From Botryllus schlosseri (Eukaryota): 64,000 nt of DNA. The stretch's first letter is position 1, and each line of letters begins with the position of its first letter. Where the stretch lies: assembly GCA_051294905.1 (NCBI GenBank), contig CM119372.1:27654001-27718000 (forward strand), in the 5' to 3' direction. The position numbers were made by a program, and so were the translations under genes. Below, piece by piece: positions 1 through 42,135 of this stretch. The notes beneath the pieces are model-generated. The model had not been told where the DNA came from. It made no database searches and worked only from the letters and a program-made list of their open reading frames with translations.

Positions 1-11
1 AGCTTCAGAAA

Positions 12-578
12 GTGAGTTGGGATGAGATCGGGTCCTACTGGGATGTGTACATTCATCTACCTTGGATTGGCCCGGTTTCTTATCGATTTGAGAAACAGAT
101 CACTTCAGCAGTCCATCGCTGTTATCCAGCGGTGAAAACCAATGTTGTTTTTACCACGATACCAATGTTTCCTGCAGTCCGAAAGGACGTTCTCCCGGCT
201 TTACAACAAAGTAACGTCATTTATGAATTCAAGTGCCACTGCGATTGTCGGTACGTAGGGAGAACTTCCAAACGGTTGCAGGACCGAATTAAAGAACACA
301 TCCCACCGTCTGTCAAATCATATATCTCGAAATCGCAGCATAACAATCCGCTTGTTCTAGAACATAACCAGGCCATGAGTCAAAAATCTTCTATTGGCAA
401 ACATTTACTAGAAAATCATACGTGTGCTGCTAACTACCACGAGGACATGTTCTATGTATTGGCTAAGGGTCGCAATTTATTTCATTTGTCTGTTCTTGAG
501 TCCACCATCATCATTATGAGTAAACCTAGTTTATGCCAACAGAAAGAATTTGTGTATCATTTGAAAATCGCGCATTAA
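12..578 (+). CDS. Penelope-like retroelement ORF, C-terminal part (linker + GIY-YIG endonuclease); 5' part missing or outside the window
   Basis: VYIHLPWIG linker, then VIYEFKCHCDCRYVGRTSKRLQDRIKEH (GIY-YIG with CxC), SSIGKHLLENH and LESTIIIMSKPSLC: the motif order of Penelope/Poseidon endonucleases. The RT domain is not in the window. Confidence 0.92.
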   Translation: MSWDEIGSYWDVYIHLPWIGPVSYRFEKQITSAVHRCYPAVKTNVVFTTIPMFPAVRKDVLPALQQSNVIYEFKCHCDCRYVGRTSKRLQDRIKEHIPPSVKSYISKSQHNNPLVLEHNQAMSQKSSIGKHLLENHTCAANYHEDMFYVLAKGRNLFHLSVLESTIIIMSKPSLCQQKEFVYHLKIAH

Positions 579-9199: not shown

Positions 9200-9423
9200 A
9201 TGGATCAATGTCGCTTGCGTCTTCTCTTATACTCTCTGCATTATTTTTCATTCAGTGTGCAGTGCATGCTTCTTATTTGCTTCGCCTAGGGCCTAGGCTA
9301 AGGTGGGTGTCTGATCTTAATGGCTACTCCAAGTTGTTTCGACACCTTCCTATCTTTTCATTGTATCGCAGTCTTGTGATGTTTTGAAACGATGAAAATA
9401 TTAATAAACCTGATTGATAGATT
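9200..9423 (+). repeat. 3' end of a non-LTR retroposon; second, inverted copy at ~17895-18100
   Basis: Both loci share TTTCGACACCTTCCTATCTTT..CATTGTATCGCAG; ends in AATAAAC plus a short TGAT-type tail. Confidence 0.55.
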
Positions 9424-10017: not shown

Positions 10018-10840
10018 TCATTTAGTGGTAGTTGCAGACGGAACAGTGGTGGTTTCAGAATCTGTTGTTGTCGGCGTAAATGAGGGGGTTGCAAACGGAT
10101 AGGTGGTGCTTTCAGAATCTGTTTTTGTCGGCGGAAATGAGGGGGTTGCAGACGAATCAGTGGTGGCTACGGAGGCAACAGTGGTGGTTTCAGAATCTGT
10201 TGTTGTCGGCCTAAATGAGGAGGTTGCAGACGAATCCATGGTGGTTGTAAATGGAACAGTGGTGGTTTCGGAATCTGTTGTTGTCGGCGTAAGTGAAGGG
10301 GTTGCAGACGAGACAGCGGTGGTTCCAGAATCTATTGTTGTCGGCGTAAGTGAGGGGGTTGCAGACGAAACAGCGGTGGTTGTAGACGCAACAGGGATGG
10401 TTTCAGAATCTGTTGTTGTCGGCGTAAGTGAGGGCGTTGAAGACGTAACAAAGGTGGTTGTAGGCGGAACAGTGGTGGCTGCAGACGGGACAGTGGTGGT
10501 TTCAAAATCTGTTGTTGTCGGCGTAAGTGAGGGCGTTGAAGACGTAACAAAGGTGGTTGTAGGCGGAACAGTGGTGGTTGCAGACGGAACAGTGGTTGTT
10601 TCATAATCTGTTGTAGTCGGCGTAAATGAGACGGTTGCAGACGAATCAGTGGCGGTTGCAGACGGAACAGTAGTGGTTGTAGAATCTGTTGTTTTTGCCG
10701 TAAATGAGGGGGTTACAGACGAAACAGCGGTGTTTGAAAACGCAACAGCGGTGGCTTCAGAATATGTTGTTGTTGGCGTAAAAGAGGTGGTTGCAGGCTT
10801 TGTGGCTTGGTCCGTTGCATACGTATCTTCTGGGCAAGTC
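10018..10840 (-). CDS. Host exon encoding a mucin-like Thr/Ser/Pro-rich repeat region (273 aa, ends in TGA)
   Basis: Acceptor TATTTTTTAG immediately before 10840; phase-2 start G|ACT TGC CCA GAA; open frame TCPEDTYATDQATKPATTSFTPTTTYSE... then about ten variable repeats of TTTDSETTTVPSATTT.SSATPS(F/L)TP, ending TTTK*. Confidence 0.8.
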
Positions 10841-11574
10841 CTAAAAAATATACGTCTTATCTAATCGACTGAGCAATTGGTATTATCAACTGTATGTCAA
10901 CGCTCAAAATATATTAAGAAAGTCACATTTCATTGGGAAAATGCTGGTTCGGAGCCGATGCTGCATTTGCTTGTGTCGGAGATAAGGATTTAGATCAGTG
11001 GTTCCCAACCGGTCGGGAGTTCAATGGTTTTTGGTTGGGAATAGACGCATTTGTTAAACATTATATACAGGATAGTATACATATTTACGGACACACATGC
11101 AAGATTACCGTTACCATTCAACTGCTCTGGAATGTATGTATCGAAAATTATATTGCGTGTTGTTCACAAAAACACATTTTGACCACTAGATAATCAATAA
11201 CGCCGTCACAAACGCATCCAGTCCGACCAGTATGTCTTGAAACAACTTTTTCGCTCAATTTTGAGAGTTACTGGAATCGGTTCGCAATAGTTTTATGATG
11301 CAGTTATCGCGATCGGCTTGCGTACTGGCGTGGTTGTGTGTCTTGTGTGTTTAAACTAGCAAATAGTTTTGGGTAGTGCGGAATGAAGACTCGGAATAAA
11401 TCTGAAGTGGGGAATGAAAACAAAAGTAGTATAGGTTTGGGGATATGGGCGCATTCAAGCTATTTTAATAAAGCAACGAACTTCTCTAATATAATAAAGA
11501 AACAAAGGATACCGGACTTGCGCATTTTGCAGAAATGCCGAGGGTGCTTCCCCGCGTGACCGATTGCTGCAAGC

Positions 11575-11773
11575 TTTTGTTTTGGTGTATTCATGGTGTT
11601 TGTCGACTACTATGGTCATTTACACCAGGCCGATATTCTTCTTATTTTCCGTGACTGTCGACTTATAGCACGGCCCACCTCTAGGCTTTTGTGAGACACC
11701 GATGACGCGGATGAGGTGGCGAGGAGAAGCCTAGGTAAACCTACGACACTTAGGTATCGGAATTCGGAAGTCG
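11575..11773 (-). mobile_element. 5'-truncated tRNA-derived SINE
   Basis: TSD GATTGCTGCAAG (11562-11573, 11774-11785); absent from the right arm (empty site 24847-24859); body matches 54118-54387. Confidence 0.88.
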
Positions 11774-12102
11774 GATTGCTGCAAGTGGTCTGATCGATAA
11801 ATTATGTGGCTGACTGGGCTGATTTCCGATGTAAATGAGTTTGATCTAATTATATTTCTAGCGTCATTTTCGAGGCTGGAAAATAGCGTGACTCGCTATC
11901 AGAGTTGGATCAATTGTAATTTTTAATTGAGCTGAATGTAATTAATACATTTTTCAATATAATTGTAATGTAATTGAAATTGAAGCATTTTTATTTTGTG
12001 TAATTGTAATTAAAATTTGACAAAAATTTTGCTCAATTGCAATTTCAATTACATTAAATTGCTATTGAGACCTGACAAGCACAACATGAAATAATTGACT
12101 TT

Positions 12103-12974
12103 TAGGGCGTTTTTTTTTTACCTAAAAAAAAGAAAATTTCGACATAAAAAATCCAAATTTTGACTTTTTTTGACCTAAAAAAACTGAATTTTGACCAAAT
12201 TTTGACCTAACGTATGCAAATGAGGTGTTTTCCCACATAATGTTAAAACTGTACCACTTATCTTCATTTCTGGTTGGATCTGACTGTCCTAACGAAGTAG
12301 TTTGGCCTGAAAAAGCGTTTTTGGCTTAGAAACAGGCAACTTTTTACATGAAAAAAAAACAATATTTTAACGAAATCTGGCCCTATGAAGAATTCCAGTG
12401 GTTACAATATGTATTATGGTAGAAATGATGGAAATATTTTGTCGTACAACGAAAGATACTTTCCTACATTCTTGGGTAGAAAGTGCACGTCCTTACTAAG
12501 AAGCTTGCCAAGGACGCTCAACAGCAGCAGTTGTTGGCTGACAACACTCAAGTTGTACGTACACTGCTGGTGCTGGTGACACACCGTGTTGCTTCACTCT
12601 GACAATGTTGTCTACATCACAAATTTTCATCATGCGCTTCTTAATATAAGAATGATGCAATGCACTAGAAGTCTTTCTTCAGTTAGGATATTGCGGTACG
12701 TTGACCATAACACCATGTCTACCTATTATTTGTTTTATTTGACTGTTTATGATTCACGATGAGCAGACGATTAGCCGTTTACAACGGTAGGCCTATAAAA
12801 TAGGCTAACAGCGGTAAAATATCAAATTATAAGTTCACCGACAGTGCAAAATCTACGATACAAACAAAATGCAGGCGTCAAAAATTTTTTGACTTCATGA
12901 AAAATTTTGACAAATTTTGACCTAACGCTACAATATTGACAAAATTTTGACATGTCAAAAAAAAAATCGCCCTA
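12103..12974. mobile_element. MITE with TAGGGCG...CGCCCTA ends and TTTTGAC repeats
   Basis: Inverted ends and repeated AATTTTGAC motifs near both ends; no matching TSD. Confidence 0.55.
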
Positions 12975-12982
12975 CTTATAAT

Positions 12983-15235
12983 CAGGGCATGGTATGATAT
13001 GGTATGGTATGGTATGGAAGTATGGTATGGTATGGATTGATATTTTGGTATGGAATATGGAACAATTCAAGTATGGTATGGAATAGAAGATTTTAATCTA
13101 TGGTATGGAACGGCATTTCCATACTTCCATACTTAAGTGTTTTATACATTTTATCCTGATCTGTGCAAGCTTCATGAAGCGTACGTTGATCGCTGTTCAT
13201 GGAATACGATCGCTTTTGTTATGTGTGAACGTGAACTATTGAATGCTGTGTAGGAAAAAATACACGCTTGTGCAACTGTTTTAGGAGCACTTGGAATGAC
13301 ATGATTTTGTGATGCAATAATGACAACAGTAATGTTGATCCGATATTCTACTGAGTCTAGACACGACGTCTCCGAGCAAAGTATATCGTGTGACGCAATA
13401 ATTGGTAATGTGTAACTCCAACTACCTCATTCCTTGAGTGACGACAGCTTACAAGCAATCAAAGATGCAACGTACTAATTGCTCAATGCCAGTGGTGGCT
13501 ATTGGGGTGGGCGAGGCGGGCGGTCGCCCGCCCCCCCCCCCCCCCGTGGTCGAAGGGGCCCCCTATTTGGATTTTGCACTTTTTTCAAGGAGACTGACGA
13601 ATAAACATGGAAATCCGTGCACCAAGCAAGAATATGATTCCGTACAGGTGTGTCAATCATCATCAAATCACTGCATTTGTTAGAAAAGTCCCGTATCCCG
13701 ATAATCATCACGTCTCTGCATGCGGTAGAATTACTTAGTTTTGATGTAGTCTATCCTTGCACAGATGCAAAATAGACATGGCCGAATCCAGCACCTGGAC
13801 CAACCTTTGCGGTGGTGAGAGATAGATAATAATAACCGATGCGGAAGGGGGGTCGGGGGGCGTAGCCCCCCGGAAGTTACGGATAGATACTAATAGCCCC
13901 CCCCCCCCCGGTAAGTCTCGCCCAGGGCCCCCCGTTCGTAGGGCCACCACTGCTCAATGTGATTGATAATTACATTTCTTCTGAAATATTGTCCGCACAT
14001 TTATACTATTTACATAGCGAGATGTCTTATTGGTCACATTTCAAACGATCTCATATTAGGATTATAGATCAGGGAGTGGGGTGGATATAGTTTGAAATTC
14101 TGGCCACGCTAACCTCAACCAAATACTGTACTAATAATCACGCAGATCGCTGCAGTATTGATCGCCTGCAGCTGGGAGGGGATATTTTATGGGTGCGCCT
14201 ATATTATAGATTATTTGGCGAGTATTTACTTCAAACTTGCATGTATCTCATGCCAATGTACGGAACAGGGGCGGGCAACTTCTCCAGTTAGCGGGCCGGA
14301 TATAGGACAATTAAGTACTTTGCGGGCCGGATTGCTGAATGGATACATTATTCGCGCATATATACAAGGAATAAATCGTTTTTAATGAATATATTTTATC
14401 GACAACAATATGTCACTTCAGAGCCATTTCTCGCCGATAATGAGAATACAATGTGGATTTGAGAACAGCATTGTCATACAGGCGCCGCCATGTCTGCTTA
14501 GCTCTGATCAACTAAATCTCGGTGCAATCCTTAATTAAGATTTCAAAGCGTTTGATAAGCCCAGTACCCAAAATTTACCAAGATTTCAATTCATTAGGGT
14601 TGAGTACATCGTAAATGCCGATAATGCAAGTCTTCTCGATTCGACGAACTTACGCGTAAGCTCCATTCTCGCACGCTGCGCAGTGCGCACACCTATATAA
14701 TAACATACAGTCACTAAAATTTGATGTTTAGGCAAGTGTGGAATCTCGGCAGACTGGGGCCCCGGGCCACATTATCATGTAAGAGGGGAAACTGTCCGCG
14801 AACCGGACAAAATCTCGTCGCGGGCCGCATTTGGCACGCGGGCCGTATGTTACCCGTCCCTTTTATGGACTGTCCTAGATAACAATCTGCTGACTATCTG
14901 ATTTTGCTCGCGAAAGCTGCAGGGTAGACGTTCATGGCACCTCACCACCGTGAACTAGACCTCACCAAAACAGACTCTGTAAAACTATCACCAGGAATTA
15001 GATTCGCATCATGGCTAGTTTGAGCAAAAATGACTTCCGAAATATCAATAATATGGGTGCTAGAAAAGGTACTATACGTATGATATTGAAGTATTTGAAA
15101 GTATGGAATATGTATCACGTATGGTATGGAAGAATGTTGGTATGGTATGGAAAATTGCAAGTATGGTATGGAGAGAGTAAGGCAAGTATGGAGTATGGAA
15201 AATTGCCGTTCCATACCATACCGTACCATGCCCTG
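12983..15235. mobile_element. Non-autonomous hAT element with (GTATG)n subterminal repeats
   Basis: TIR CAGGGCATGGTA / TACCATGCCCTG; exact TSD CTTATAAT. Contains MITEs at 13490-13952 (TSD CTCAATGC/CTCAATGT) and ~14266-14862. Confidence 0.92.
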
Positions 15236-18200
15236 CTTATAATGCATTCTCTTTAAATGTCGACAAGGAATTTGGTGGATCCATTCGCGGAAGCCCTTGA
15301 CTGCGCCCTTGCGGGCGAAGTTTTTTATTTTTACCGCTATGCTGGCCTCGGCTGCCATTGTATACAATTATTAGATTACTAACCAACGGATGGATTCGCA
15401 ACACGTGACTCACGATTGAATACGCCGAGAAGCGAACTGCTGAGCCGACTAAAAGCAGCAGAATTGATAGTCCCATAGCTGGCGATCCAAGCGTCGAAAT
15501 TTGATATGTATGGTCCTAATCGAAAGCTAGTGTCGCACTGATTCCGCAATAAAAGTATATTTCCAGGCAATGGTACCATCCCAAAATAGTCGTGAAAGTC
15601 TGGGAATCGGCATTGTTCTGAACAATCGCTGGGCGTAATTGGTCATTGTTGTGGTCATGCTGCTGCGGCGCTCTCACTCTTCGGAACAGTCGGCCTTAAA
15701 CGGCTATTTTGGAGCAGTTTCATTGCCCTGACGAGATTTTAATTTGTATTTTTGGAATTAGTGCATCAATAGCTTACGATGAAGACCAGATGCATCCAAT
15801 TTGGACGCTTGGATCGCCAGCTCTAGGACTACAAAGTTTGCTGCTTTTAGCCGGCTCTGCAGTACGTTTGTCGGTGCATTCACCCGTGACTCACTTCTTG
15901 CAAATCTATCCGTGGGTTGGCAATCTACAATACGATTTCAGATCACGATGCTGCATCGTTACTTCGTCTGGCTAACTAACCATACCACTGGATATTATAT
16001 AACGTCTTATCTGACAAAGCACGGTTTTGTTTTTACTCCTCATCCTAATTCCTACGTCCCTCGATAAAAATAATATTATTTCTTTAATTATATATTATAT
16101 ACGCAAATCCAACATGGGCATATATTATAATACTTTTTCAACGACATACTGCATACTGGAATAGTTCGAAAACGTTTTTTCTTTTCATTAATAAACGGGT
16201 ATTTGCGTATCATGAATGAAACATGAATACTTGAATTGTTGTTTATTACGACGCTACGGTTGTCAAGGAGCACGGTTGAATTTATGATGATTCAATTACA
16301 TGTTCAACAGCAGCAATTGTAATTGTAATTGTAATATAATTGAAGCATGCAAGGAGTAATTGTAATTGTAATTTGATATTTTTAGCATGGAGTAGGCTAA
16401 TTGTAATTGTAATGTAATTGAAACATGCATGAAAGTAATTGTGATTGTAATTGTAATTGAACTGAAATAATGTAATTGGTCCAACTCTGCTCGCTATTGG
16501 ACGATGAGTGGATTGGTAAATTGTCCTGTCTGTTGTTTTCAAAACTCGACTGACCTATCGTGTCGCGATTTCCGGTTCAATTGAGTACGGCTGCTACCTT
16601 CGTGTAATCAAAACTGGTTTGCAGTGAATAAAGTTTTATTATCAGGCGAATATTTTCAAGGTTATTGTATTCTTTGCTGTAATCTCTATGGAGTGTACTC
16701 CGACGAAACGGAAAAGTCCTCCCGGCATGACTCGGCGTGTAATCCCAATCGTGGGTTGGTTGATCCAATATTTCTTGAATGTGATAAGGTGAGGGAATAT
16801 TTGCCCATTGAACATCACATCTGTGAAGTGAACGCTCCTCTTAATCCGTATATCGGAGCCTATGCTCTATCTCAAGTGTGCGGTCAAGGCGTTGGGCCAC
16901 ACGAAACGATATAAATTCAAGCTTGACGTTTGAGCTGACATATTCTGGTCCGGATCTTTGCTGTAATTTTTCACGTATGAAGATCGAATCTTTCTGGATC
17001 TTTATGGTGTGTAACCCGACGAAACGGAAAAGTTCGCTTGGCGTGACTCGGCGTGTAATGGCGAATTGTTTGACTTAGGGGTAAATATAATGACTACTTA
17101 TGCCATGTTTCAAGGTCGTCAAGTTCGTCAATGTCACATGAATCGATGTAAAGTCCCGATTGGTTGAATTGTTGTTCTTCGAAGGGAGTGGGGAACGGTT
17201 TGCTGTTTTTAAGGGCTACATCCAAAATTACTACCGTAACCCGCTGTCAGTCAGGCGCAGAGACGAGCGGATGTGAAGATTTGATATTACGAAACCATCT
17301 TGCTCCGGTTTATATGTTAAAACTCAACTGGCGTATGATTTCTCTTGGATCTCTCGATCAATGATTTCCGGTTCAATCGAGTGTGACTGCAAGCTATCTG
17401 TGTGATGCACGGGTTATCAAATCAAACTCGTTTGTGTTATTGACTCCACATTGACATGACCGTACGCAGACAGTTTTGGATAACTATATGGGATTCGATT
17501 GAAAACGGCTTTATTACAAACAAGCTGAGATAAATCCATTGTTCTTGCTACTTGCTAGCCGTCATTTTCAAGCGGTTGTTGACGACGTCCAAAACTACTT
17601 AGCAGTTTAGGACAGTAGATGGTGTGCAAGGAGCGAGACTCGTATAAGATACAAATGAGGGTGAATTTGGATGAAAAAGCAACGCATTGAAGGATCTTTA
17701 CGGGATTACTTTTGGATTTACGTTTATCCGGACCTGGATTTGTGGAATTTACATGCTACTGGCCAAATAATTTCGCTGGCAAGTGATGCCAATGAATCAA
17801 CCGTGATGGGTTCTGTATCACACACAATAAAATATCGCAAATATATACACCTCAAACGTTACCGTATTGCAGCTGTTCTTGAGACAATTTAGTGTCAGTT
17901 TAATTATATTTTCATACTTTCAAAATACTACAAAACTGCGATACAATGAAAGATAGGAAGGTGTCGAAACGAGTTGGAGTAGTCTTTGAAATCGGACACC
18001 CACGTTGGCATAGGCAAAGTGCAGAAGAGGAATACACAGCGAATGAAAACTAAAGCATATAATATGAAAGGCAATCGAAAAAATGAGGTGACATGGGACG
18101 GAAGGCTAGATCGAAATGTTAGTTTGTGGTCCGGTAATGTTACTAGTATTGTAGTATGTGTGTGTGTGTGTGTGTCTCTGTGTGTGTGACCATGGCTATG

Positions 18201-19283
18201 TCTTTGTACGATGCATGTCGATCCTCGCTTCATCGCAATGTCCTGTCCAATACCGCTTTCTGCCTGGTATTGTAGCAGGTACGAATGTTCGACTATATTT
18301 TCAGATTGCACATGATTGTTTCCTGATATGAATGATTGTTTACCACGGTGAACCGTCCGAGATCGCACCGTTGTAATCAATATTCACATTTCTATACACA
18401 AAATCGCCCGAAAGAACGTTAGCCGATAACGACGAATCTCGTATTATTGCCGCCCTAAAAGATGGTTCATTTGTAAAAACTCACTGCGTTAAGGTCAGTA
18501 TTGAAAATATTAGGAATGAAATTTACATATCTAAATATATTGAAAATATATCCTGCTGGAGTTGATATCATGGCGGGTAGAGTTTGTTTCATTTTTTTTG
18601 ATATTCACGTTGCTTGTAGACTACTACGGTCATTTACAACAGGATAATTATAGTCATTTATTTGTGTTCCGTAGCCGCCGACTTGTAGCACGGCTCACTT
18701 CTGAGCTTCTTGAAGACACCGCTTACATGGATTATTTGAAAAATAGGAGCCCACATAAACCTCCAACACTTGGTTAGGAATTCTCAGTGGCGGCTCGTGA
18801 CAATATCGGGTGGTGGGGCAAGGGCTGCAAGCGACTTTTTATCAAGATGACGTCACAATGGCGTTTTCCAACGTAAACAAATAACTTGGTGGTACAGTAA
18901 CACGAACTTCCCAACGACAGTGATTTTAACGTATGTGCCGCGAGAGGTCTGCAGGTGAGCTGTGACTTGAAGTGGGGTAAGTTCGTAAACGGCGTACGGA
19001 ATAAAGATTCGGCACGGTTCATGTTCGCACTATACCTGACTAATTATCTGCGGAAATGGAAATTAATATAACTCGAGAGATTGCGTAAGCCCTGGAAAGG
19101 TCAACGAGTTCGGACACATACGCAATTTTTATCTCATAGATTGGACATGTCATATTGAATCCAAAACATAATTCTGAAGAACTACGGATAGCAGCCTCGG
19201 AAATTCGGTCCCGGTACAGCATAGGAAATTTTGGCCTTGAGGCTGGAGACTGTCACACGTCACATACGGCTTACAGTCTATAG

Positions 19284-21284
19284 CAGTGGTTCCCAAACTT
19301 TTTCGATGTGAGGGCCAAATTTAGAATTTCGGAGTACGGTCGGGGCCGCACGAATACTACGGCTATGAAACGGAACCAAACAGTCATCATGGTTATATCG
19401 GAGTAGTTTTATTGCCCTGGCCAGATTTCAAAACTGTTTATCGCTACTTATCTGCGGCATTGGGTGTCGGTTGTGTGAATCAGCTTTTCTCGCCTAAAGG
19501 CGCGAAGCGCGAGAAAGTTCTTTAGTTTCATGACTGAATCGGTCAATATGATCAGGAATTGCATGTATTGCTATCAGTTTTCATCCTGTCTCTGTTCATG
19601 TAATCTGATTTACCGGTAGAGCTGAGTGAGGTGTGTTTGAAAAGGTAAAGGCCCCCTCAATAGGGATTAAACATCTCCGGGGGTATACCCGTTGGCAGGA
19701 ACGTAGTAGCACTTCTTCAGGACCCCGGGCTCCCATGGGGTGATAAACTGACCACGCATCACGTTGTTCGCCTTTGTCACGAAATTATAGTTGTCCCGTT
19801 TAGTGAGACAACACTACGCGCGAATATGTCGATAATTCATGATAAAATTGGTAAATAAGATCGGGAATTGCATGGTTGTCCTCTTTGCCCACGTAATCAG
19901 ATTTACCAGTAGAGCAGAGTGAGAGGTGTCTTTGAAACTGCAGACCCCGTAAAATTAAACATATTCGGACGTGTGAACGAACCCCTAGGAATGACTTCTT
20001 TACATGATGTTATTTCGTGACCTCCTGTCTGCAATATCAAAAAATGTAGAATTGCCCTAACCTACTAAACTGAAAGATCACGCGATTTCAGATTGGTATT
20101 TCCTCACTGGCATATAATTTTCTTTTCTGCGGGATGGTGTTTGTCTTGTGAGGTTCAGACTGCCAAGACAAGAACATTCGGCGCCAGTCATTCAGGCGCC
20201 TATATGGACAATTAAACCTTAATTTTTTTCGTATATTTAAAGAAGTTAATCGTATTTCGAAGTTTTTGGTCAGCCTAAATGCAGTCCTTTACGGCCAAGG
20301 CTTTCTCGCTCCCGATCGTTCTGACACACTTCTTGAAGTCACATGTTATATGGCCTAAAACTTTATGTCTTGGTGCGTTGTGGTGCGGTCATGGCCAACG
20401 CTAATATGCCCATTTCTATGAATCTTGCGTATTTTTTCTTGGGGAAGAGTACCCAATAACCAAAGTTGCATAAATTGTCAAAAAATACTCTATTATTTAT
20501 GCTAATTCACGAAATAATTTTAGGCGCCCGTTCGAGCTCGGCCCTCCTCAATTCGGGGGTTTGGGCTGCGGCAGTTACCGCCCTGACTATATGACTAATT
20601 ATTATGCTGCTTTTAGCAAGCTATAGCTTATAAGCAGTATGCAATATGCATCTCGACGTATTCAGCCATGAGTCACGTGTTGCACATCTAGTTATTATAG
20701 CGGTGCCATACGACCTCTTTTAAGATGATTTGTCCTCTTTTTGTGTCCTCTGAGGACGCCCAAATGTCTTCTTTTTTGAGGATTTTGGTTATATATAAGG
20801 GCCAAATTCGACTGATATACATTAAGTCAGCACTGTATGAACGCTACTGCGGCTATTTTTGGAGCTGGACCGGAAAGTTGACCTTTTTTTTCAGTCAACC
20901 ACCTGTTACCGTGAAAGAAAAACTGCATTTTCCGGGTGTTGAGCCTCTTTTTCTTTTTTGGTCAGGCGACCACGAAGTGGGAAAATTTACCAGGTTTTCA
21001 GGATTTTCCTTCGGTTTCGAAAGTTATCAATACCTATTTATATCAATAGCTACTGCTCGTTCAACTGGAAAGTTAGGGCACCACATTGCATTGAAACAGC
21101 AGTGACGTAACGTTAGCAGTCTATACTCACAACTTTCCTGCAATTCTATAATTAAAAACTACAGAGGCCAAGCCAAGCAAGAGTATTTTATAAATTTTAA
21201 TTTTATTTTTTGTAATAAATCCATTTCTCAATATATTTCGGAGGCCGCAAGAAGGCTATCTGGGGCCGCACTTGGGAATCACTG
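19284..21284. mobile_element. hAT-type non-autonomous element; interior ~19500-20500 is an inverted homologue of ~48500-49160
   Basis: CAGTGGTTCCCAA / TTGGGAATCACTG ends; TSD weak. Confidence 0.6.
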
Positions 21285-21289
21285 GTCCT

Positions 21290-22415
21290 AGTGTCTATAT
21301 GTCTGCTGCAAAATCGCCTTTGCAAAATATATTACCGAATAAATACGAGGATGAAACTTGGTACACTGTTACATGAAATCATCGAGAAGTGGCCTGATGA
21401 CCGTTTTCGGTATGGTACACTGTCAAAATTAATACGAACAGACCAACACCGAATTTTGCGTAAAATTTACTGAGGAATAGGCTGATCAAGCGATCAGCTG
21501 TTAGCCGCCATCGAAAACGAAAAAGCTATCACGCTTGACAGGGGTTGTAATGGTAAGCAAATGGCCTGACGGCCTCAACTTCACGGTGAAATTGACATTG
21601 GAGAATATAAAATAAAAGTAAATATTTGAATGCAAACCGAGGATGATAGTGAACGGTTTCATGATATCATCATCTCATCACCTATCTCAGTATGGAACAC
21701 AGTTAGCGTTAACACAGATACAGCAGCTTTTGCTTGAAATCCGCAATGCGTTTGGTAGGCTAAGTGTAAGACCAGCGCACATCTCTACCATACTCGACAT
21801 TGATAACGAAATTGCTGCCCCAATCATTGAATGCCAACCTTGAGACTCGGCACAGCGTTCGATACTAAAATCAAGACATACCATGCCAAAGCTCATGACG
21901 GATCTAGGTAAGGAGCATCTTTAAAATCAATCGAGACTAATACCGGCTTTGCGTAAAATATGTTTGCGATAAATGACGAGTCAGCTCTCACTCGACTTAG
22001 GAAACGAAATTACCACTAACATAGCTCATTGACAAACTTGAAACTTGACATGACCGATCTCGGTATGAAACATCGTCAAAATCAATGGATACCAATACCG
22101 GCTTTTGAGTAAAACCTGTTTGCGATATATGACGGATCAGCAAACACTCAACTTCGGAAACGGAATTGCTACCCTAAACTTTAAGTAGAAACCCTGAAAC
22201 TTGGGACAGTGTTGAATACCACCATCACGACATGACATACCAAGTTTCAAGAATTATCATGGTGTTAAACATCATCAAAATCGACCTATACCAGCAAAGG
22301 TCGACTAAACGCATATGACGGTAACCGAGTTCAGATATAAATACGATTGTTACATCACACCTTAAGGGCAACCAGGCTATGTTGCCCCACCTGCTCGGTA
22401 ATTTTATGAATAGGA
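21290..22415. repeat. Interspersed repeat, possibly Helentron-associated; related pieces at 29090-29600 and 33629-33708
   Basis: Recurring AAACTTGGTACAC / TACCAAGTTT and TTCGGTATGGTACA motifs; internal direct repeat ~21922-22020 / ~22078-22180. Class assignment is weak. Confidence 0.4.
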
Positions 22416-25244
22416 GAAAGTAAATCACTTTTTCTTTATTGTGCGCGGCTTTGAGAGAATAGACAGTGAAAGCTTGTTATGAGCGCTACCGGGGCATGCC
22501 CCGGCTAGGCATGCGCAAAGCGAAATCACGGAAGAGATTCGATTTTCGCAGAGACTTCGCTATATATGGGTATTTACAAGCGAAAGGACTAGAAGAATAC
22601 GATTTTCGCTGTGATTTCTGTATATATAGATTGCTGTGCGTCTATAAATGGATAAGAATTGTTATTGAACATAATTTTAGGGGGGGAGCAATGCCCCAGT
22701 TGCCCCATAGGACGAGCCGCCACTGGGAATTCTGTAGTCGAACTCAGTCAGACTCGAACTGGCAACCCATTGGTGTTGTAGCTGCGGAATCGACCACTAC
22801 GGTATTTCGACACAGCGGGTGAAGTCATTATTCACTCTGCGTCATGGATTATATTTTCTTTAACATCAAACTGTTGATATACTTCCATTTCTTGTGTTCT
22901 TGAAACAGACAACATACCTATTTAAAAAATGGGTCACGTATTTTCTTCATACACAGGCTCTAATAACTCTAGTTTTTTCACTCAATTTTACCGGCAAATA
23001 TTCTCAAACTCGTGTTTCAGCGACACTAAGTCAGTCCATCAGTATCCTACGAAACGGAAAGAACGTTCCCGATACGTCCGCGTACAATGGAATCGAGTAT
23101 CGTAGTTCTCGATACAGGAAACACATCGATGCAAGAGTCACGAGTCGGAAGAAAATGAATACATTGAGGTAATTATTCCAAACAGGTATTTTAAACCCCG
23201 ACTGACGTCATCTTATCACACTCGATCGATCACGACTGATTCATGGCCCTCACTTGCCAGCGCAATTATTTCGCGAGTAGCAAGTAAAATTTTGAAAAAT
23301 TTGGGTCAGGATAAGCGTGAATACAAATGTAATCCAATAAAAATCATCCAATGCGTTGTAGGCCTACTCCTTACCGATATTCATGCTCATTTGTATAGTA
23401 TACGAGCCCCGATTGGTCGGCGTATAATGGAATCGAGTATCGTAGTTCTCGATGCAGGAACCACATCGATGGAAAAGTCACGACTTAGGAGAAAACTGAT
23501 TACTTTGATGTAATTGATCCAAACGAGTATTTTGAACCCCGATTGACATCATCGCAACACACTTGATCGATCACGGCTGATTCATAGGCATCACTTGCCA
23601 GGCTCACTCCTTGCACACTCGCCATCTACTATCCTAAACTGCTTAGTAGTTTTGGACGTCGTCAACAACCGCTTGAAAATGGTGGCTAGCAAGTAGCAAG
23701 AACAATGAATTTATCTCAGCTTGCTTGTAATAAAGCCGTTTTCAATCGAATCCCATACAGTTATTCAAAACTGTCTGCGAACGGCCATGTCAATGTGGAG
23801 TCAATGACACAAACGAGTTTGATTTGATAACCCGTGCACCACACAGATAGCTTGCAGTCACACTCGATTGAGCCGGAAATCAGTGATCGAGAGATCCAAG
23901 AGAAATCCTACGCCAGTTGAGTTTTAAAATATAAACCGGAGCAAGATGGTTTCATAATACAAAATCTTTACATCCGCTAGTGTCGGCGCCTGACTGACAG
24001 CGGGTTACGGTAGTAGTTTTGGATGTAGCCCTTGAAAACAGCAAACCGTTCCTCACCCCCTTCGAAGAATGACAATTCAATCAAGCGGGACTTTACATTG
24101 ATTCATGTGACATTGACGTCCTTGACAACCTTGAAACATGGCATAAGTTGTCATAATATACCCCTCAGTCAATCAACCCGCCATTACACGCCGAGTCACG
24201 CCAGGCGAACTTTTCCGTTTCACACCGTAGAGATCCAGAAGGATTGGATCTTCATACGTGAAAAATTACAGCAAAGCTCCGGACCAGAGTATGTCAGCTC
24301 AAACGTCAAGCGTGAATTTAAATCGTTGACCGCACACTTGAGATAGAGCATAGGCTTCCATATACCGATCAAGAGGAGCGTTCACTACACAGATGTGATG
24401 TTCAATGTGCAAATTTTCCCTCACCGCATCACATTAAAAAAAAATGGATCAACCAACCTTAGATTACACGCCGGGTCATGCCGGGGGAACTTTTCCGTTT
24501 CGTCGGAGTACACACCATAGAGATCCAGAAATATTCGATCGGTATACGTATACCATAAAATTACAATAACCTTGAGAATATTCACCTGATAATAAAACTT
24601 TATTAGCCGCAAACCAGTTTTGTTTACACGCAGATAGCAGCCGTACTCAATTGAACCGGAAATCGCGACACGATAGGTCATCCGAGTTTTGAAATCAACA
24701 GACAGGGCAATTTACCAATCCACTCATCATCCAATAGCGAGTCACGCTATTTTTCAGCCTCGAAAATGACGCTAGATGTGTAATTACATCAAACTCATTT
24801 AAATTGGAAATCTGCCCAGTCAGCCACATAATTTATCGATCAGACCGCTTGCAGCAATCAGTCACGCGGGGAAGCAGCCTCGGCATTTCTGCAAAATGCG
24901 TAAGTCCGTTAACCTTTGTTTTTTCATCATATTAGAGAAGTTGGTTTCTTTATTAAAAAAGTTTGAATGTACCCATATCCCCCAAACCTATACTACTGAG
25001 AAAAAGGTTGCGAACCACTGCTCTATTGTATTATATCAAGTAAGGAAACTTTTCATGAATGTAATTAGAAAGTACACTATATTTGATAGGAGTTCTCATT
25101 TTTTTTCATGAGATCCAGTTCAATATATAAGGGTGGTAATACAACATTGGATCTGTCGATCGATAAGAGCTGGCTCTGAAGCATTTAAAACCTTGGTGTA
25201 AGATACCACCTCATCTGCTGAGTCATCGGCCACTTATGATATCT

Positions 25245-28280: not shown

Positions 28281-29767
28281 AATTTGAATTCAACAGTTTC
28301 AATTCTTGTAATACCCCTTGATGCCACATGTACCGGCTAGGCTACCATCTACAGCGAAGCACATTAATTCGTATTGTGCGACAATTTAGAGCTCTCAATG
28401 TCTCTATGAGACCTTGAACATCGACACAATAGACTAAAGAGGATTCGGATGCGAAGAACCGTGTGTACTCACTATCACGATGCATATAGCAAGCAAAGGG
28501 GGTATCAGTGCAACGTATTATATGTTTGACTTTAAATTCGGAACGTACAACAAGAGCAGATTCATTTGGCGAATTTAAATTTATGACAAAGTTATTTAGT
28601 TCAGCTTGCTTCAACTTTATATAGCTGCTGATCGCCATCACACTCATGCTGAGAACATTCTTCGAACAAAGACTCTTCACTGAGAGAATCTTATCCAACA
28701 GTTGGTAAAACTTTTGAAGGCAATGAAATTGTGACATCTGACCCGTGAGGAATCGGTCGTGTTGCGCAAATCAAATTGGATATTGAATTTGATGCTCATT
28801 TTGACGTAGTTAAAAATACACGAGCAAAAGTAACAATTTTTCTTCATGTACTTTTTTTCAAATAGCCTAGGCCAGTGGCTCCCAGCCGGGGGTCCAAGGA
28901 CCCTTGAGGATTCCCAAAGCAATTTCAGGGGGTCCGAGAAGCTTCTTAATTTGAAAAATTATTAATACACTAATTCTTTTTTTAGTTATAGGGAAATCAC
29001 GATGCAGTTTTGTTTCACACCAGCTAGAACTTCAAGATTCAAATCAACAGCATGGCCGTCTGAGATGAAACATCTTACTGTGAATTCGCAAAAGCCGGTA
29101 TTGATAAGTGTACAATTTGAATGAATTTTATACGGCGATGGATAACAAATTTTCGTATTATATACCTTGATGAGGGAATGTAACACTGTACCAAGTTTGA
29201 AGGCTATGACTCACTAATTACATTAGTAAGTGCGTCATCAAAGTCGAGTATCCAGGGTCTACGTGCACATAAAAGAAATTTAATATAGGTTTATGTGAAT
29301 TTTGAAAGTGTTCTATACCGAGATGGATGACGAAATTCGGTATGGTACATCTTGGTTGTGTTATCTAGCTTTGCAGTAAGTTTCAGGATAGTCACGCAAT
29401 GATTAGCATGGTGATTCCTTTATCAAAGTCGGCAATATATCAGTGTGCGCTCATCCACCAAATACTCGACTTTGACAGCAAAATTACTACGTTAATCATT
29501 GAGTCACAGCCTTTTAACTTGGTACAGTACTAGATGACAGCAACAAAATATACCATACTAAATCCTGTCACCGACCTTCAAATGGAACACAGTCAATATC
29601 AACAAAGACCAATAGCGACTCTGCCTTTAATTAGTGCTGCAGACGGATCGACAATACCAAAGTCATGAAAGGTATCAGGGCGTGACGGTCACGTGATTTT
29701 TCGAGTGGCCACACCACCTTTGAGTACACGCTGGTAAAACTATAGATAACTAGGTTAAACCGTAGAT

Positions 29768-33584: not shown

Positions 33585-35623
33585 CCGTAGATGCAACACT
33601 CGCGAGCGTCACGTTATTTCACGCTCTACCAGCGAGATGGATGACGAAATTCGGTATGGTACATCTTGGTTGTGTTATCTAACTTTGCAGTAAGTTTCAG
33701 GATAGTCAAACAATGACGGCATACATTACGGCACGGTTATTGTGTTGCTTGGCGCTTATGCAGTCGGAGGCAGATTTCAGCATTAGGTTGGTAATATCTA
33801 TGCATGGGGTATGGTTAGCGAGTAAATGCTCCATATGGTTACTAACCGAGATTATTGGATCCATGCTACACAATCGGTGCTGGGAAAAGTGGCAAGCAAA
33901 TACATTTTTTTAGTCAATAAATACGGCTGCCCGAAGCGAATTTCTAATATCTCAAGATATAAATTCCTAGGTGTAAGTGTAAGGTGTCGTATTGAAAGTG
34001 ACGACTCTAATCGCATGTCAGCTGACGTGGTCTCGATGCCTTCAAATTCTGTAGATATAGGTATGTAGATTAGCTTGGAATCACGCCATATATAATAGGA
34101 ATTTTTATTACTTGACAGGCGATTATTTGTCTGAATCTAATTGTAACTGTTGCGACTTGGCCTAGACAAGGATATTTGATTGAGACTACTCACTGCTGAT
34201 CTTATTCAAGATCTGCTGAATAATGTACAATGATATGGAGGACAGGAGAGTGACGGCAAGGAAGCAAGTGGCAGCTGGTGATGAAGTCTGAAACCTTCAG
34301 CATTGCTAACAATAGCTTTAATACTATACCGCCTACCATCTATCTTCATTCATTAAGTATGTATTGGAATCAGGCTGTCCCAATACGCAAGCAGAAGACT
34401 GATGGCTGTCGATCTGAATTTCAGTCGGAGCAGGTGATAATCCAGAAGCATTTCACGAATGGGACTAATTCTATGAAAGTTTATTTAGGATCAAATTTAT
34501 CAAACTTTTGCTTGGTAGAACGCAGCTAATGAGTTGGATCAAAGAAGATGAAACTTGAGGAGGAAAATTTGGTGCGTTGTGAGCAAAAGTCTTGAGTACA
34601 TTGCATGGTGCACTTTCAACAATGCACGTGGCCCTCTCGGACGAGGACACTGTTGTTTTGAAATTGTAAATCTACTTTGCAATTTCCAACCACGTGGCTC
34701 CTTCATTTCATTTATCAAGAATAAGGATTGACAAAATATTCATATTTTGGATAAGGAAAAAGGTTGTTCTTGGCTAAGTTTTAAAGTAGTCAAATATCAT
34801 AACCATGTTAGTAAGTCTTGCAAGTAGGAAAACCTACTTGAATACTTTGAAAAAGTATGCACATGTTGGAATCTGCCAAAATATATCTGAATGTGACAGG
34901 TTTGTAACCAAGTCACAAGGCTCCGAGTCACAAGTAGATTTCTCATTTAGAATTTTGACTCGAGTCATTTTGAATTCACCACCAATTCAAGTCCGAATCC
35001 AAGTCATCGAGCAGGGGATCAAGTCTGTGTCATGGTATTATGACTCAAGTCCGAGTTTAAGTCAATATGTTGACTGCTCAGTTTCCAGTTAAAGTCTAGT
35101 TAAGCTCAATGTTATAACTCTGCTTGGTGATATCGAATGGTTCACAATTACAATATACTAATTTTCCTCACTTTTAACAGTTTCTGACCGCACTTTCAAG
35201 TATCAGTAGCAATAGACGAAACCCCAATAGGCTGGTTACTTTATTATTCTTCGAAATTACAATGAAATGTCGGCCTTGGCCGTCTGAGTCTCGAGTCATA
35301 TATGACCTGGTTCGGGTCATGCGCAATGACTCGAGTCCAAGTCGCGTCAATACACTGATTGAATCGAGTCGAGTCATTTCCGTATTTTGAGAAAATGACT
35401 CGAGTCAAGTCGTGTCATCGATAATAGTGACTCGAGTCGGGTCATTACAACTCCACTGTGACACAACCAACGGTCCGTGTGTTTCTGTTTTTATATTCCG
35501 TATTTCGTGGTTTATTGTCTCTATATCGTCATGAAGAAGGAAGCAATGAAATGCGATTTTACCAAATTTGTCTCATTTGGGAGAGCTCAACAAGAATTAG
35601 AGAGCCGAGTCAATGGTCATAAG

Positions 35624-36094
35624 TAGGGCAAGTTTTTGCAAATTTTTTTACAGCTTCCTGCAGCTTCCTAAATAGTCGTATGATATGTAGAATGCTGTTT
35701 CAAGCTGTTTGAAGGAATCTTAAAGTGCAACTTTTTGCAACTTTTGTTCATTATTCTTCATGCATTTTTTTGCAACATTTTGCAGCTTTTTCGATTTTTC
35801 ATGAAAGTATTTTCGATGTTGGTGAAATTCACTGCTAAATTCGACTGCAATGCCTCAAATCAGTACTGAAGGAACTCTCTTACGTGTATTTCGGAAGCTG
35901 AGCCGGAAAGATGACTTTTTTTAGTCAATCTGGAGTGGAACTGGGGAGTTGACCTTTATTTTTTTAGTCTACGGAGCAAAATGTGGTCTTTTGGTGCTAC
36001 CTTTGTGAAAAAAATAAATGCAACTTTTTACTGCAACTTTTGTCACAAATAAATGTAACTTCCCCGGATTTAGCTGCAACAGAAACTTGCCCTT
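35624..36094. mobile_element. MITE with TGCAAC repeats
   Basis: TAGGGCAAGTTT / AAACTTGCCCTT ends; exact TSD GTCATAAG. Confidence 0.85.
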
Positions 36095-37740
36095 GTCATA
36101 AGTCATAGTAGGGGGGCGTCTATATTTTAATCAAACCGAAAGACATAAAAGGCCGCATCAATATTGACATGTGCGATGTAGCCTACACATGCGCAATACA
36201 GGATAGGAATGAGTGACGAGACCTTCGCATTCAACTTGTCGGATCACAACCACATCAAACATGTTGTACACCGTCTCTGTATAATCTGACTGTATGTAAA
36301 CATATAAGATTGGAATAATGTCAGGGTTAAGTAGGGTAACAGCGTTGATACGACGACAAGATGTAATCCAGTAAATATTTTCTACATCTATCATCCGAAT
36401 GTCCACGGATAGCCTATTTGTTGTGACAGTGATTCCATATGAGAAGCCCTGAGTGTTTAATAGATCTTGAGCCAGGTTACTATTACATGCAGATAAATAT
36501 AGATTTGCCCGTTGACAAGGATCTCGTAGTCTGAGAGTGAAAATATTTGCGTGTAACTGTTATCTTGCAAAATTCAATGCTTAAGCTGTCAGTGAAATGA
36601 TTTTTCACATTTGACATCATTCAACTGGATTATTTGATACCGCAAGGCGGCTTCTATTCGCCACATTTTTGACACCCAGTATTTTTAAAACATGAAGTTC
36701 AACCAGGGGGATTCGCATCCCATCTGCTTTCAGATGTAGGAGCACCTCTACGTATCAGTTTATCACCTATCCTCATTAAAATGATGAAATTGACATTGCA
36801 CTGATCTTATGGGATTTTATGCTTCTGAGATAAATTCCAGCGATAATTTGGATATCTGACTGTGGAGTTCCGCTAGTCCCACCATATTGCAGGCATTCAC
36901 GTAGTCTCTTTGTCAAAGCTGTGTAATGATAAAGGGGTCATCAATGGTGTTATATGGGTCTTATATCACACAAATTTCACAACCTTTACTTTCATCCTAT
37001 TCGACTAGCCTCAGGATCGTCATTTAGTTTCAATGTGTCGAGAAGAAACTCAGTGCCTGATAAATTTCTATAGAAATAGTCCCACGCGTGAAATGCATAG
37101 TGGGATCACCAGCTTTGAATAAAATTTTACCAAAAGCCATCAATTTTTTTGTATTAAGATAGCGTGACTTCATTACTGACTGCTCCAATGAAGATAGATG
37201 GTAGGTGATACGATAGCGACCCTTGTATAACTTACATAGCCAGTAATCACTTGCTTCTTTGCCATTACCGTTCTCCATGTCATTGGACATTATACAGCAG
37301 ATCTTGAATAACATCGTCAGTGAGCAGTTACTTTTAATCAAATCTACTTTCATCGGCCAACTCACAACAGTTAAAATTAGATTCTAAGAATTATTCCTCT
37401 GTCAAGTAACAATAATTCATATTACTATAAGGCGTGATTCCATGCTAAGCAGCATAACGTTGTCTACAGAATTTGAAGGGGCCGAGACCGCGCCAACTGA
37501 AATGTGGTTTCTTATTCTGATTGATATTATACCAACACGTCATTAGTAGTATAACTACTTTTAATATGACACCTCGGAATTTCTATCTCGAGAAACAAGA
37601 AACCCGCTTCGAGCAGCCGTATTTATTGGCTTCAAAATTGTATTCGATTGCTCGTTTTCCTAGCACAGATTGTGTAGCATGGAACCTTAGTTAGTAAACA
37701 TACGGAGCGGCTACTCGCCAAACATATCCCATGGATAGAT

Positions 37741-38020
37741 GTATGTATGTATGTATAGGGGGGAGGGGGTGCTTCTCGGCTAACTGGGGCCTTTGGCACC
37801 ATGCCTGTTTTGTTCACTAATACAACTGTAAGTCTCTATAGAGCTTGTATCAAGCATTTATTAGCTTGTTACAAGCTACTTTACAAGAATTATTTTTACA
37901 GTGTAGTGGACAATATAACAAAGTCTAACAGTGATTGTAGCGTGTGAGGACTTTTCAATAGCGAACTAAGCGAAAGTGGAATATTGTGTCTATGTGCGGA
38001 TTGAATTAGATGGACCCTGG
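37741..38020 (-). mobile_element. Short retroposon-like insertion with (ATAC)n tail
   Basis: 12-bp TSD CCATGGATAGAT (37729-37740, 38021-38032); absent from the homologous left arm near 33800. Confidence 0.7.
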
Positions 38021-38763
38021 CCATGGATAGATATTACCATCCTAATGGTGAAATCTGCCTCCTGGTGCAAAAGCGCCAAGCAAAACAAAAACATTGCCGT
38101 ATAGTATAATTAGAGCGTGAAATCACGTGGCGCTCGCGAGTGTCGCATCTACGGTTTGCCTTAGTTATCTATAGGTGAATAGTGCACACTGAGTTGAAGT
38201 ATTCGGGAAAATGGACCAAATAACTGGTAATCGCAGGAGCGAAAACTCCAATGCGGAACAGTTGAATACGGTTAGGGTCGCATTTAAAACAAAAATCAAT
38301 TTAAAACAAACAGATTAAAAACATGGCTCTTGTTTTATACATGATTTTTAGCATGGACGTCATGAGTCTTTAATGTGACGTCACCGTGGATTGACGTTTA
38401 CAATTAAAAAATAAAGGGCTCCTTCGGCGAAAAGAGCTTGTCGTAAACAGACCAAAATATATTTATTCAGGACTATATCAAGATGCAGCATTTTCACGGT
38501 CGGTGACCACCATCATAAGAACAGCCATTCCCTACCAATATTCTATATCTACAAGCTATAAATAACGAACATACGACGATTCCGGGGGTTCTAGCCACTC
38601 CATATTGTATATTTCGACTAAATTGGGTGCACACCGTCCGTATAAGCTAAGACTACATGTCTTTCGAAAGTATTCTCACAATTATGACATGGCTATACTA
38701 CGTTTGAAAAAAGCACACTTTTGTTCTTTTTAAAAAGGCATTTGTGTAAAACACTGTTTAAAA

Positions 38764-39916
38764 CAGAGGTCTCAAACTCAAATGTGCTCGCGGGCCAGTT
38801 TTCCCGTTTTGACGACGCCGCGGGCCGCACCACTTAGAAGGGTATTCTATGTCTTTCCAAGTAGGCCTTATTTGACGGGAATGAATTGTCCTATTGAAAG
38901 TGAGCCGATCCAGCAGACTGACAGTAAACACACATCGTCAAAATGTGATTTGCTCTTGTATCAATTTAGGCCTGGCACGTAAAGAATCATCACATTTATA
39001 ACTATTTGAATAGAATTGTTGTTGTACTTGATATATAATAATTATAAGATATAGACACCATATGGGCGGACAAATGTATGATGCCATCATAAAAGCTATC
39101 GGGTTATAATTTTGCAGCTACTATGAATATACTGAATTTAACAGATTGATAATAATAGAGACTGATCTGATGTCAAAACATTTTTAGGTTAAGCATTGTA
39201 ATTCCAATCCAAGATTCGGTTGTACTTCTGATAGGCTATTAATCTCATGGCCAAATATCTTCAAATACAGGAGCAGAAAAAATATAAATATGATATAAAT
39301 ATATTAATGAATGTGTCTTAGTGATTGAAATGTCGGAACGCCGAACAGCCCATTGTCGTTACATCGTGGGAGCGTACCACTACGGTAACAGATTGCCCAT
39401 AGTTGCCATAACTACTTGCTTGGTTAGCAAAATACCAAGCTGCGACCTTCTGATCCATTACTAACCCCTGATACGCGATAAGTTTGTTGCGTCCACGGTT
39501 CTAACAAATTCACGGCATTCCGAGTCACTCCGAGTCAACTTAAGTCATTTTCATTTTGCCATCGAGTTAGCCCGAGTCTGAGTAATTCTAAGAAAGGTCG
39601 CGTCCAATTCCAACTGACAAATTTCAGTCACGAATCGTCTTAGAGTCAAGTTTTGTCATCATGAATTGGAAATGTGGCGAAATAGTGAATCTTCCCCTGC
39701 CTGGTAGCGTTTGCAATGGATGTGATAGTGAAGTTTGACGAATAGTTTCAGGCTTTCGGAGCAATTTAAGAGGGAATTTTGACTTTATAACCTGACAAGA
39801 TTTATGTGACACTTATACATTGTCAAATTATTAAAAATCTAAAATGTCGTCGCGGGCCGTACGAAATGCTCTGGCGGGCCGCATGCGGCCCGCGGGCCGG
39901 GTGTTTGAGACCTCTG
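38764..39916. mobile_element. hAT (Charlie-like) MITE; inverted relative at 53771-55588
   Basis: CAGAGGTCTCAAAC / GTTTGAGACCTCTG; GCGGGCCG subterminal motifs; degenerate TSD GTTTAAAA/GTTGAAAC. Confidence 0.82.
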
Positions 39917-40657: not shown

Positions 40658-42135
40658 CAGGGGTTCTCAACTTCCCTTGCATAACGGGCCGCATTTTAAC
40701 AGCAAAATACGTCGCGGGTCGCAGAACATTATTTCCATGTATTTGTGGGCTACTATTAAATTTAGGCTAATGTAGCCTATTTGCGAGTCGTATACGGGCG
40801 TTTAGTACATTTTTCTGCATTCTAAAGCATTAATGGACAGTGTTCGTTAGTTTGCGGTTTTTGTTTTTGTTAGAATAATATTTTCCAGCGGCGCAAATAT
40901 TTCCCGTCATTGAGAGTGCATTGCATTAGTGGCCAAGTCGATATATGCACCTTCAAACCCTTTCACCAGAGAACTGAACTCTCTGTTTCAATGCGCGAGC
41001 GAGGAAGTATATAATTACGGTAGCCTTTTCGTAACAGAGGTCATTGTCACTTTGAGCTCCAGGTGATATGAGAAGTCTGGCATTCGGGTCATTTCAGAAC
41101 AAACCAATCAACCCTACTCCTTTCCTTCTATGGCTGGAGCCCTGCACCACTCGTCATACAGATAGGAGTCAGCGTTGTCAAATTGATGTTTTTCGATCGA
41201 TCCTCCCCGCGTTTGCCCTGCCAGCATTTCCACTCTGATAAAAAGCACCCAGATAATTTGCTATGCAATGTCTGTGAAGTCAGTGGATTCGTCCGATGCT
41301 AGGCTAAAGTACTCTACGCAGCAGCGTATTTCAGAGCATGCGATGAAAGATCGACTGACATTGCGGTTACTCTTCTGGTTATGGTTTCATCAGACAACTG
41401 TAGCTTCAACATTTGTCAGGTGATGTTGTCCTTGCTGTTAAGTTCGGGAAGCAGCGAATATTCGCACAGTATGTTTAGGTTTTATTGAAATGACAACTTC
41501 TCTGACAAATTTCATGGATTTAGCGATATTCCAAGCAATTTTGAACCATGCGTCTGTAACATCGTCGACAATTTTAACAATGCCACGAAATATGGATTGG
41601 TGGGTTTGCACCTAGCTAGCAATGTTTTTTTCTAACATCAGGCGATACGTATAACTTCAGAAGAAAGTGTCTTAGTATAAATTTAAGCTTCTACGCTTCG
41701 TTACGACAACTGATCTTCGACAAATATGTCACATTGGTTTTCTATTTGTATCTGAGAAAGCAAATTGATTGTTCCACGCAGACTTACAAACCCAGTTCCA
41801 GCCGTCTAATTTCCCCTTCCTTGTTCTTGCATCTGTTCAAACCATTCGTGGTGAGTGAAACAGTCCTTAAAAGTGTACTCCACAACGGAATTGTCTTGAA
41901 CCAGCGTCCAGCCGAATATCGATTCAAAACAATAACAATCTACACTCGAGCATATATCAAGAAACCAGAAAACATCAGAGAATCAGAAATCAAGCGAAAC
42001 AGAGACTGTACGATAAGAGAGCTAAGTAGCGAAATTATAATTTAACAATATCGTGCCAGTAGAAATTGCGTCTACAATGAATGATGTTGCGTGCCGCAAA
42101 ATAGCCGTCTGCGGGCCGCGGGTTGAGAATCCCTG
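40658..42135 (-). mobile_element. hAT (Buster/SPIN, GTF2IRD2-like) deletion derivative with N-terminal transposase remnant
   Basis: TIR CAGGGGTTCTCAAC / GTTGAGAATCCCTG; exact TSD GTCTACGG; motifs KPM*HIC, FKIAWNIAKS, LSDETITRRV, YFSLASDESTDFTDIA. Confidence 0.92.

Follow-up and report, generated by a model that had tools for sequence, protein, structure and literature searches.

A gene-less, largely palindromic element with Maverick-type ends beneath nested host repeats in Botryllus schlosseri

Results

Layout of the element

We analyzed a 64,000-nucleotide stretch of the Botryllus schlosseri genome (GenBank assembly GCA_051294905.1, contig CM119372.1, positions 27,654,001 to 27,718,000; hereafter the window, in whose coordinates all positions are given). 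It contains a 13.6-kb span, 11425..24997, that is made up of a gene-less element with long terminal inverted repeats (TIRs) and about 9 kb of host repeats inserted later (Table 1). A first-pass annotation, made from the sequence alone, had taken the whole span for a 13.6-kb element; just 4.2-4.3 kb (4,216-4,324 bp) is the element's own DNA, and about 70% of this consists of the paired arms of a palindrome.

The arms that the annotation had recognized, as a reverse-complement match of 11425-17807 to 23229-24997, are real over most of their length. Self-BLAST returns four inverted blocks between these two regions, the main one with E = 0.0; the paired stretches are 11425-11574, 11787-11899 and 16498-17632 with 24997-23608, and 17776-17807 with 23601-23570. 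Aligned to each other, the arms are 92.2% identical, with 109 mismatches over 1,392 paired columns, and the Kimura two-parameter distance of 0.07-0.10 is uniform along the arm. Global alignment confirms that similarity begins at AGTAGT (11425) and stops at ACTACT (24997), with unrelated flanks on either side. The innermost part of the proposed match fared less well: the block 17639-17807 versus 23229-23406 reaches an identity of just 75-81% and is likely a match between paralogous units. The right side carries a duplicated unit with 340-bp spacing (23068-23260 and 23408-23601, 84% identical). Of the two units, the outer one (at 23570-23601) differs from the innermost 32 bp of the left arm at 2 positions and the inner one at 5. 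Because the outer unit fits better, we infer that 17807 is the orthologous partner of 23570 and that roughly 140 bp were lost from the right arm. The TIRs are therefore of kilobase size, as annotated, but the orthologous arms measure 1,573 bp on the left and 1,428 bp on the right rather than 1.6-1.8 kb. The arms contain diverged, dispersed modules spaced 280-340 bp apart, but no tandem arrays were found in them, and the unpaired inner pieces have no inverted similarity to each other or to the arms beyond that seen in shuffled sequence.

Table 1. Features of the palindromic element, its host site and the repeats nested within it
Feature	Position	Strand	Evidence
Host hAT-type MITE (miniature inverted-repeat transposable element), left part, lacking the right terminal repeat; insertion target	10996..11424	+	hAT terminus at 10996
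Left candidate 6-bp target duplication, AACAAA	11419..11424	+	4/6 to right copy
Left arm, terminal part, begins AGTAGT	11425..11574	+	91% to 24997-24847
Truncated host SINE (short interspersed nuclear element), nested in left arm	11575..11786	-	12-bp target duplication; high contig depth
Left arm, second part	11787..11899	+	93% to 24846-24734
4.6-kb non-coding hAT-type insertion with its 8-bp duplication	11900..16497	.	terminal repeats, 8/8 duplication
Left arm, main part	16498..17807	+	92% to 24733-23608; inner end pairs with 23570
Left-arm segment, orthologous right partner absent	17639..17775		about 140 bp apparently lost on right
High-copy repeat fragment, then TG run	17883..18188	.	related copy at 9224-9409
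Own unpaired inner sequence, left of second SINE	18189..18581	.	arm-like depth; without protein match
Second host SINE, split by later insertions	18582..22822	-	9-bp direct repeat, one-base gap (18573-18581 / 22815-22823)
3.9-kb (3,941-bp) high-copy hAT-type element inside second SINE	18785..22725	.	8/8 target duplication; depth about 1e5
2.0-kb hAT-type element nested in the 3.9-kb hAT element	19284..21284	.	empty site (contigs, RNA reads)
Own unpaired inner sequence, right	22823..23569	.	contains duplicated unit, 340-bp spacing
Right arm, unbroken, ends ACTACT	23570..24997	-	alignment; right junction spanned by contig
Right candidate duplication GAGAAA and terminal 23 bp of hAT element	24998..25020	+	hAT terminal repeat

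Termini and insertion site

The termini of the element read (AGT)2//(ACT)2, and the window contains this hexamer once in ~3,050 positions. The MITE that forms the left flank (10996..11424) is 70% identical to a copy at 1954-2276 and shares subterminal motifs with a distant intact hAT end (L001 and L002, which are identical to each other). In that intact end the spacing of the anchor motifs is 5 bases; 6 would be expected at the present site under a 6-bp target duplication, 3 under one of 9 bp and 12 under none. The spacing thus weakly favors a duplication of ~5-8 bp over none, in a search whose pattern was built to find that layout. Public contigs and RNA from four of the 24 sequencing runs listed were compared with 10900-25150 at 80% likeness, in which the host MITE has a high contig depth. 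The right junction is spanned without substitution by one of these contigs (X2 record 16, from a sample that may be the source of the window itself), and because it is present in an independent contig it is no assembly artefact.

Copy number and relation to other copies

Depth over five bins that contain arm sequence only is 298-469 in X1 and 538-920 in X2, and the haplotype contigs of this locus have a depth of 7-12; simple division gives 16-39 elements, of which the order of magnitude alone counts, summed contig depth not being copy number. The 20 bins classed as nested repeats have median depths of 82,000 (X1) and 217,000 (X2). The terminal bin is multi-copy by contig depth; single-copy termini were what the first-pass annotation had named as the sign of a plain inverted duplication. 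As the depth of the unpaired inner pieces resembles that of the arms (a few hundred at 18411-18416), these pieces belong to the family as well. By contig depth, copies of the arms, terminus and loop therefore number roughly in the tens, far fewer than those of the host repeats.

Two contigs, X1 record 4 and X5 record 20, are 98% alike over the loop and left arm. They look like alleles, and the insertion thus seems to be common to individuals and old. The arms differ from each other by about three to four times this allelic difference, which is the reason that we judge the insertion to be old. The family to which the element belongs is likely a small and older one, of tens of copies. The 40 variant rows listed include 15 in the arms, of which 9 are private to one arm, 5 are common to both arms and 1 has three letters. 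At the private rows the opposite arm agrees with the copies elsewhere, as in private decay, while at the shared rows both arms carry a letter that is absent from other copies. Such shared letters would fit arms that were copied from each other before insertion.

The terminal pattern had 0 matches in viral contigs and 0 in metagenome contigs, and 22838-24997 had no match in phages. A raw RNA run, of which 6% was read, gave a depth of 0-1.4 over the arms versus 5-60 over host repeats and is not informative.

Nested host repeats

The right arm is an empty site for both insertions in the left arm, and the SINE and hAT insertions that the first-pass annotation had removed from the left arm are real, with 12-bp and 8/8 target duplications, respectively. 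The hAT-type insertion proper (11900-16489) is itself a pile of repeats, and a Pfam search of 11900..16497 gave no match below E 0.045. The 5.4-kb core, in contrast to the earlier account of it as the element's interior, is mostly foreign: at least 4,439 bp of its 5,421 bp (17808-23228; 82%) are nested host repeats. Two regions that had been put forward for HHpred searches, 18200-19270 and 21530-21900, likewise consist mostly of host repeats (18582-22822). For the hAT-type element at 19284..21284 the empty site is seen as a joint, 19280-21289, in three contig sets and 42 RNA reads. The order of nesting makes the SINEs and hAT elements younger than the palindromic element.

The high-copy fragment next to the left arm, 17883-18080 without its TG run, differs from these insertions in that no target duplication was found for the repeat 17883-18188, which is a candidate site of an old deletion. 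Loss of the interior by recombination between the two SINEs was considered and rejected, since the second SINE lies within a direct repeat of its own. Inside the 3.9-kb hAT-type element, 21372-22799 is the deepest repeat of the span (up to 4e5 in X2); it has internal direct repeats and relatives at 29091-29631.

Coding potential

No pPolB, integrase, ATPase, protease or capsid gene was found in the arms or core by Pfam, PHROGs or phmmer, which bears out the first-pass annotation for the core but not its description of the TIRs as gene-bearing, as these had no match in any search. Thirty-six six-frame read-throughs of 11425-24999, with X at stops, gave nothing better than E 0.023 against Pfam; 18 read-throughs of the main native pieces had no match in PHROGs; and one right-arm frame had 0 phmmer matches among 1.84 billion proteins. 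The 114 open reading frames of at least 75 amino acids in the window gave three weak Pfam matches, none in the element's own DNA. Word-indexed protein searches with a loop frame, the open reading frame 23106-23510 and the low-stop left-arm frame, which cover near lengths only, found none at E 0.01, and the ESM Atlas returned sub-0.9 matches or none, nothing of which was usable. In the main block, the share of changes between the arms that are synonymous is 0.20-0.31 whichever of the six frames is read, as neutral change would give. For RNA genes, Rfam gave one chance-level match (E 0.033, far below its cut-off), no tRNA genes were found, and the fold of a 64-bp hairpin at 18326-18389 does not exceed that of shuffled sequence (z -0.72).

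There are two weak hints of coding. A left-arm frame is low in stops (12 of 469; P 0.012 in shuffles, as one of 8 tests), and in the duplicated unit the synonymous share is 0.41 in one frame. The regions 16490-17896 (-) and 23068-24350 (+) contain one frame with half the usual density of stops, which could be a decayed gene of the family. The changes in the duplicated unit look conservative, and no homologue was found.

Other features of the window

A 280-codon open frame at 10018-10860 (-), 135 bp to the left of the host MITE, is rich in Thr and Ser, mucin-like and built of 57-213-bp tandem units; it is possibly a host exon and has no Pfam match. An open frame at 3-575 (+), which matches GIY-YIG weakly (E 5e-4, below cut-off), is possibly a fragment of a Penelope-type retroelement, and 50519-50773 (-) is a reverse transcriptase fragment (E 1.4e-4, below cut-off). 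Further inverted structures include a small foldback of two inverted arrays of a 16-bp unit (46872-47296) and two distant inverted pairs, 33796-34484 versus 37740-37060 (69%, within 33721-38107) and 38764-39916 versus 55588-53771, each of which is probably an old long-TIR element. Intact non-autonomous hAT-type elements with 8/8 duplications lie at 44630-45508 and 40658-42135.

Discussion

Origin of the element

The explanation that we favor, to which we give about an even chance, is that this is an old, helper-dependent, gene-less derivative of a Maverick (Polinton), with 1.4-1.6-kb mirror arms and AGTAGT ends, and not a new autonomous element. Of the satellite-like, non-autonomous Polinton of the first-pass annotation, a gene-less, Maverick-ended and multi-copy element is supported by the end motif, sharp ends, depth and lack of genes, but not a size of 13.6 kb or gene-bearing TIRs. 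For Polintons, replication has been proposed to be protein-primed at the short terminal repeats and to pass through a racket-like single strand, with insertion by their integrase (PMC4196379). By such a route, the polymerase and integrase of a separate Maverick/Polinton would have copied and inserted the element in trans, long ago, with the (AGT)2 ends serving as protein-primed origins and as integrase substrates. With such long arms, a single strand could have adopted the racket-like form by folding, and this folding may have copied one arm onto the other, leaving letters that are common to both arms and absent in other copies. Insertion into the end of the hAT MITE would then have made a 6-bp duplication, since decayed, after which the copy died and its arms drifted 8% apart. 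An element that kept only its ends could be copied and inserted in trans, and long arms would favor the folded intermediate.

Several observations weigh against this explanation, beginning with the insertion site. As the first-pass annotation reported, the flanks match at just 4/6 positions (AACAAA and GAGAAA) in an A-rich context, and 5.8% of the 6-mers in the window match the left flank equally well. Longer registers of the flanks give 5/8, 6/9 and 4/10 matches, and at 8-10% decay the probability of two or more changes in six bases is 0.08-0.11. The earlier view that the two ends abut halves of a single hAT MITE is plausible, though not proven, as the MITE's own 8-bp flanks match at 3/8, only at positions fixed by hAT target preference; of six other paired hAT ends examined, four have 8/8 duplications. 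To explain the MITE's mismatch a rearrangement is required, for example an adjacent deletion, which is a known behavior of hAT elements. The letters shared by the arms are likewise open to other readings: the rows are the best 40 of ~2,800, ranked by support, four of the five shared rows fall in one 20-bp stretch or its mirror (17521, 23718-23737) and amount to about two independent places, and conversion from arm to arm after insertion would give the same pattern. Finally, the contigs and databases searched revealed neither a helper Maverick bearing these ends nor another complete copy, and no loose ends at 11425 or 24997 appear among the 24 listed, so that other copies are not seen to end at AGTAGT.

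The main rival to a trans-mobilized derivative is a one-off relic, in which a gene-bearing Maverick with ~1.5-kb TIRs lost a 10-15-kb interior by deletion at 17808-18188 and the short form never moved. We regard this as possible, though with a probability well short of even. The 17883-18188 repeat, which has no duplication, could mark the break, and the left arm stops mid-unit; TIRs of ~1.5 kb fall inside the vertebrate range of 46-1,447 bp or at its limit, and 96% of vertebrate Maverick loci are degraded (PMC8097293). A depth of tens of copies would also fit an autonomous family. In addition, the best 15 of 1,731 joints, ranked by support, include none across the nested SINE or the 17883-18188 repeat, and this counts against the mobilized derivative because a multi-copy short form should give one. 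What speaks against the relic is that ~2.6 kb of right-hand own sequence (18189-18581 and 22823-24997) holds no core or accessory gene despite only ~4% decay per arm.

It is improbable, in our estimate, that AGTAGT is coincidental and the element a foldback transposon, of Mutator type or another, whose TIRs are long and modular. Known foldbacks include gene-less ones that have modular TIRs and 8-10-bp duplications, most of them related to Mutator (PMC4079207), the arms hold diverged modules spaced 280-340 bp apart and the 9-bp register of the flanks matches at 6/9, which is a point against a 6-bp Maverick duplication; however, the end motif is exactly that of Mavericks (~1 in 3,000 by chance), the arms lack tandem arrays and Pfam and PHROGs show no trace of a transposase. 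The imperfect target duplications of both the element and its host MITE would suit a history without a single insertion event, in which a segment was duplicated locally in inverted orientation or two ends that had inserted separately formed a chimera. This we consider very unlikely, given that the arms stop at a known terminal motif and share variants against other copies, that arm and loop DNA is multi-copy and the flanks are not mirrored, that precisely the terminal hAT bases missing on the left are present in the right flank, and that the right junction is found in an independent contig.

If the trans-mobilized derivative is the correct explanation, it may be the fossil of an earlier, independent wave of small hairpin Maverick satellites, in which a fold-back genome of ~4 kb, devoid of genes, depended on proteins supplied in trans for its replication and integration; snap-back satellites would then arise from Polinton replication repeatedly and not just once. 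We offer this broader proposal tentatively and consider it rather doubtful. If the short form moved, Mavericks would need only their ends in cis and would repeatedly spawn hairpin parasites, and the element would define a minimal substrate for studying a replication model that is still indirect. Taken as a single copy, the element is a decayed relic that is of value as a pointer to an older family.

Comparison with known systems

A literature search, outside which most subscription papers lay, found no paper on palindromic or non-autonomous Mavericks. Non-autonomous Polintons were reportedly described by Kapitonov and Jurka in 2006. Among other systems, the foldback Tetris is similarly non-coding, with long modular TIRs and a variable middle, but Tetris-type foldbacks have 8-10-bp duplications and tandem arrays, whereas this element has a Maverick end motif (PMC4079207). 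The snapback defective genomes of adeno-associated virus (AAV) are an analogy only, as helper-dependent fold-back forms of a linear DNA virus; AAV is an unrelated virus and not an integrated transposon family (PMC8235507). Butterfly polintons share kilobase TIRs with the element, and such TIRs are thus already in print; theirs, of ~2 kb, contain genes for hexon and adenain and lie at either end of full-length elements, in contrast to the element, in which neither gene was detected (10.1101/2025.02.07.637071). Consequently the TIRs are not unusually long, as had been suggested: at 1.4-1.6 kb they lie at the top of the vertebrate range (PMC8097293) and below the butterfly length.

The closest resemblance is to Mavericks themselves. 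In vertebrates (AGT)2//(ACT)2 is their commonest end motif and target duplications are of 6 bp, and the present element matches them in its ends, its long TIRs (1.4-1.6 kb versus 46-1,447 bp), its 6-bp-compatible flanks and its degraded state (PMC8097293). It differs in its size, 4.3 kb compared with 12.7-24.6 kb (PMC8097293, PMC4196379), in having no detected pPolB, integrase, ATPase, protease or capsid gene, in being ~70% palindrome and in the 4/6 duplication. Judged by its sequence features, the element thus falls outside the autonomous Mavericks in gene content and size (12-25 kb) and alongside them in its end motif and TIRs.

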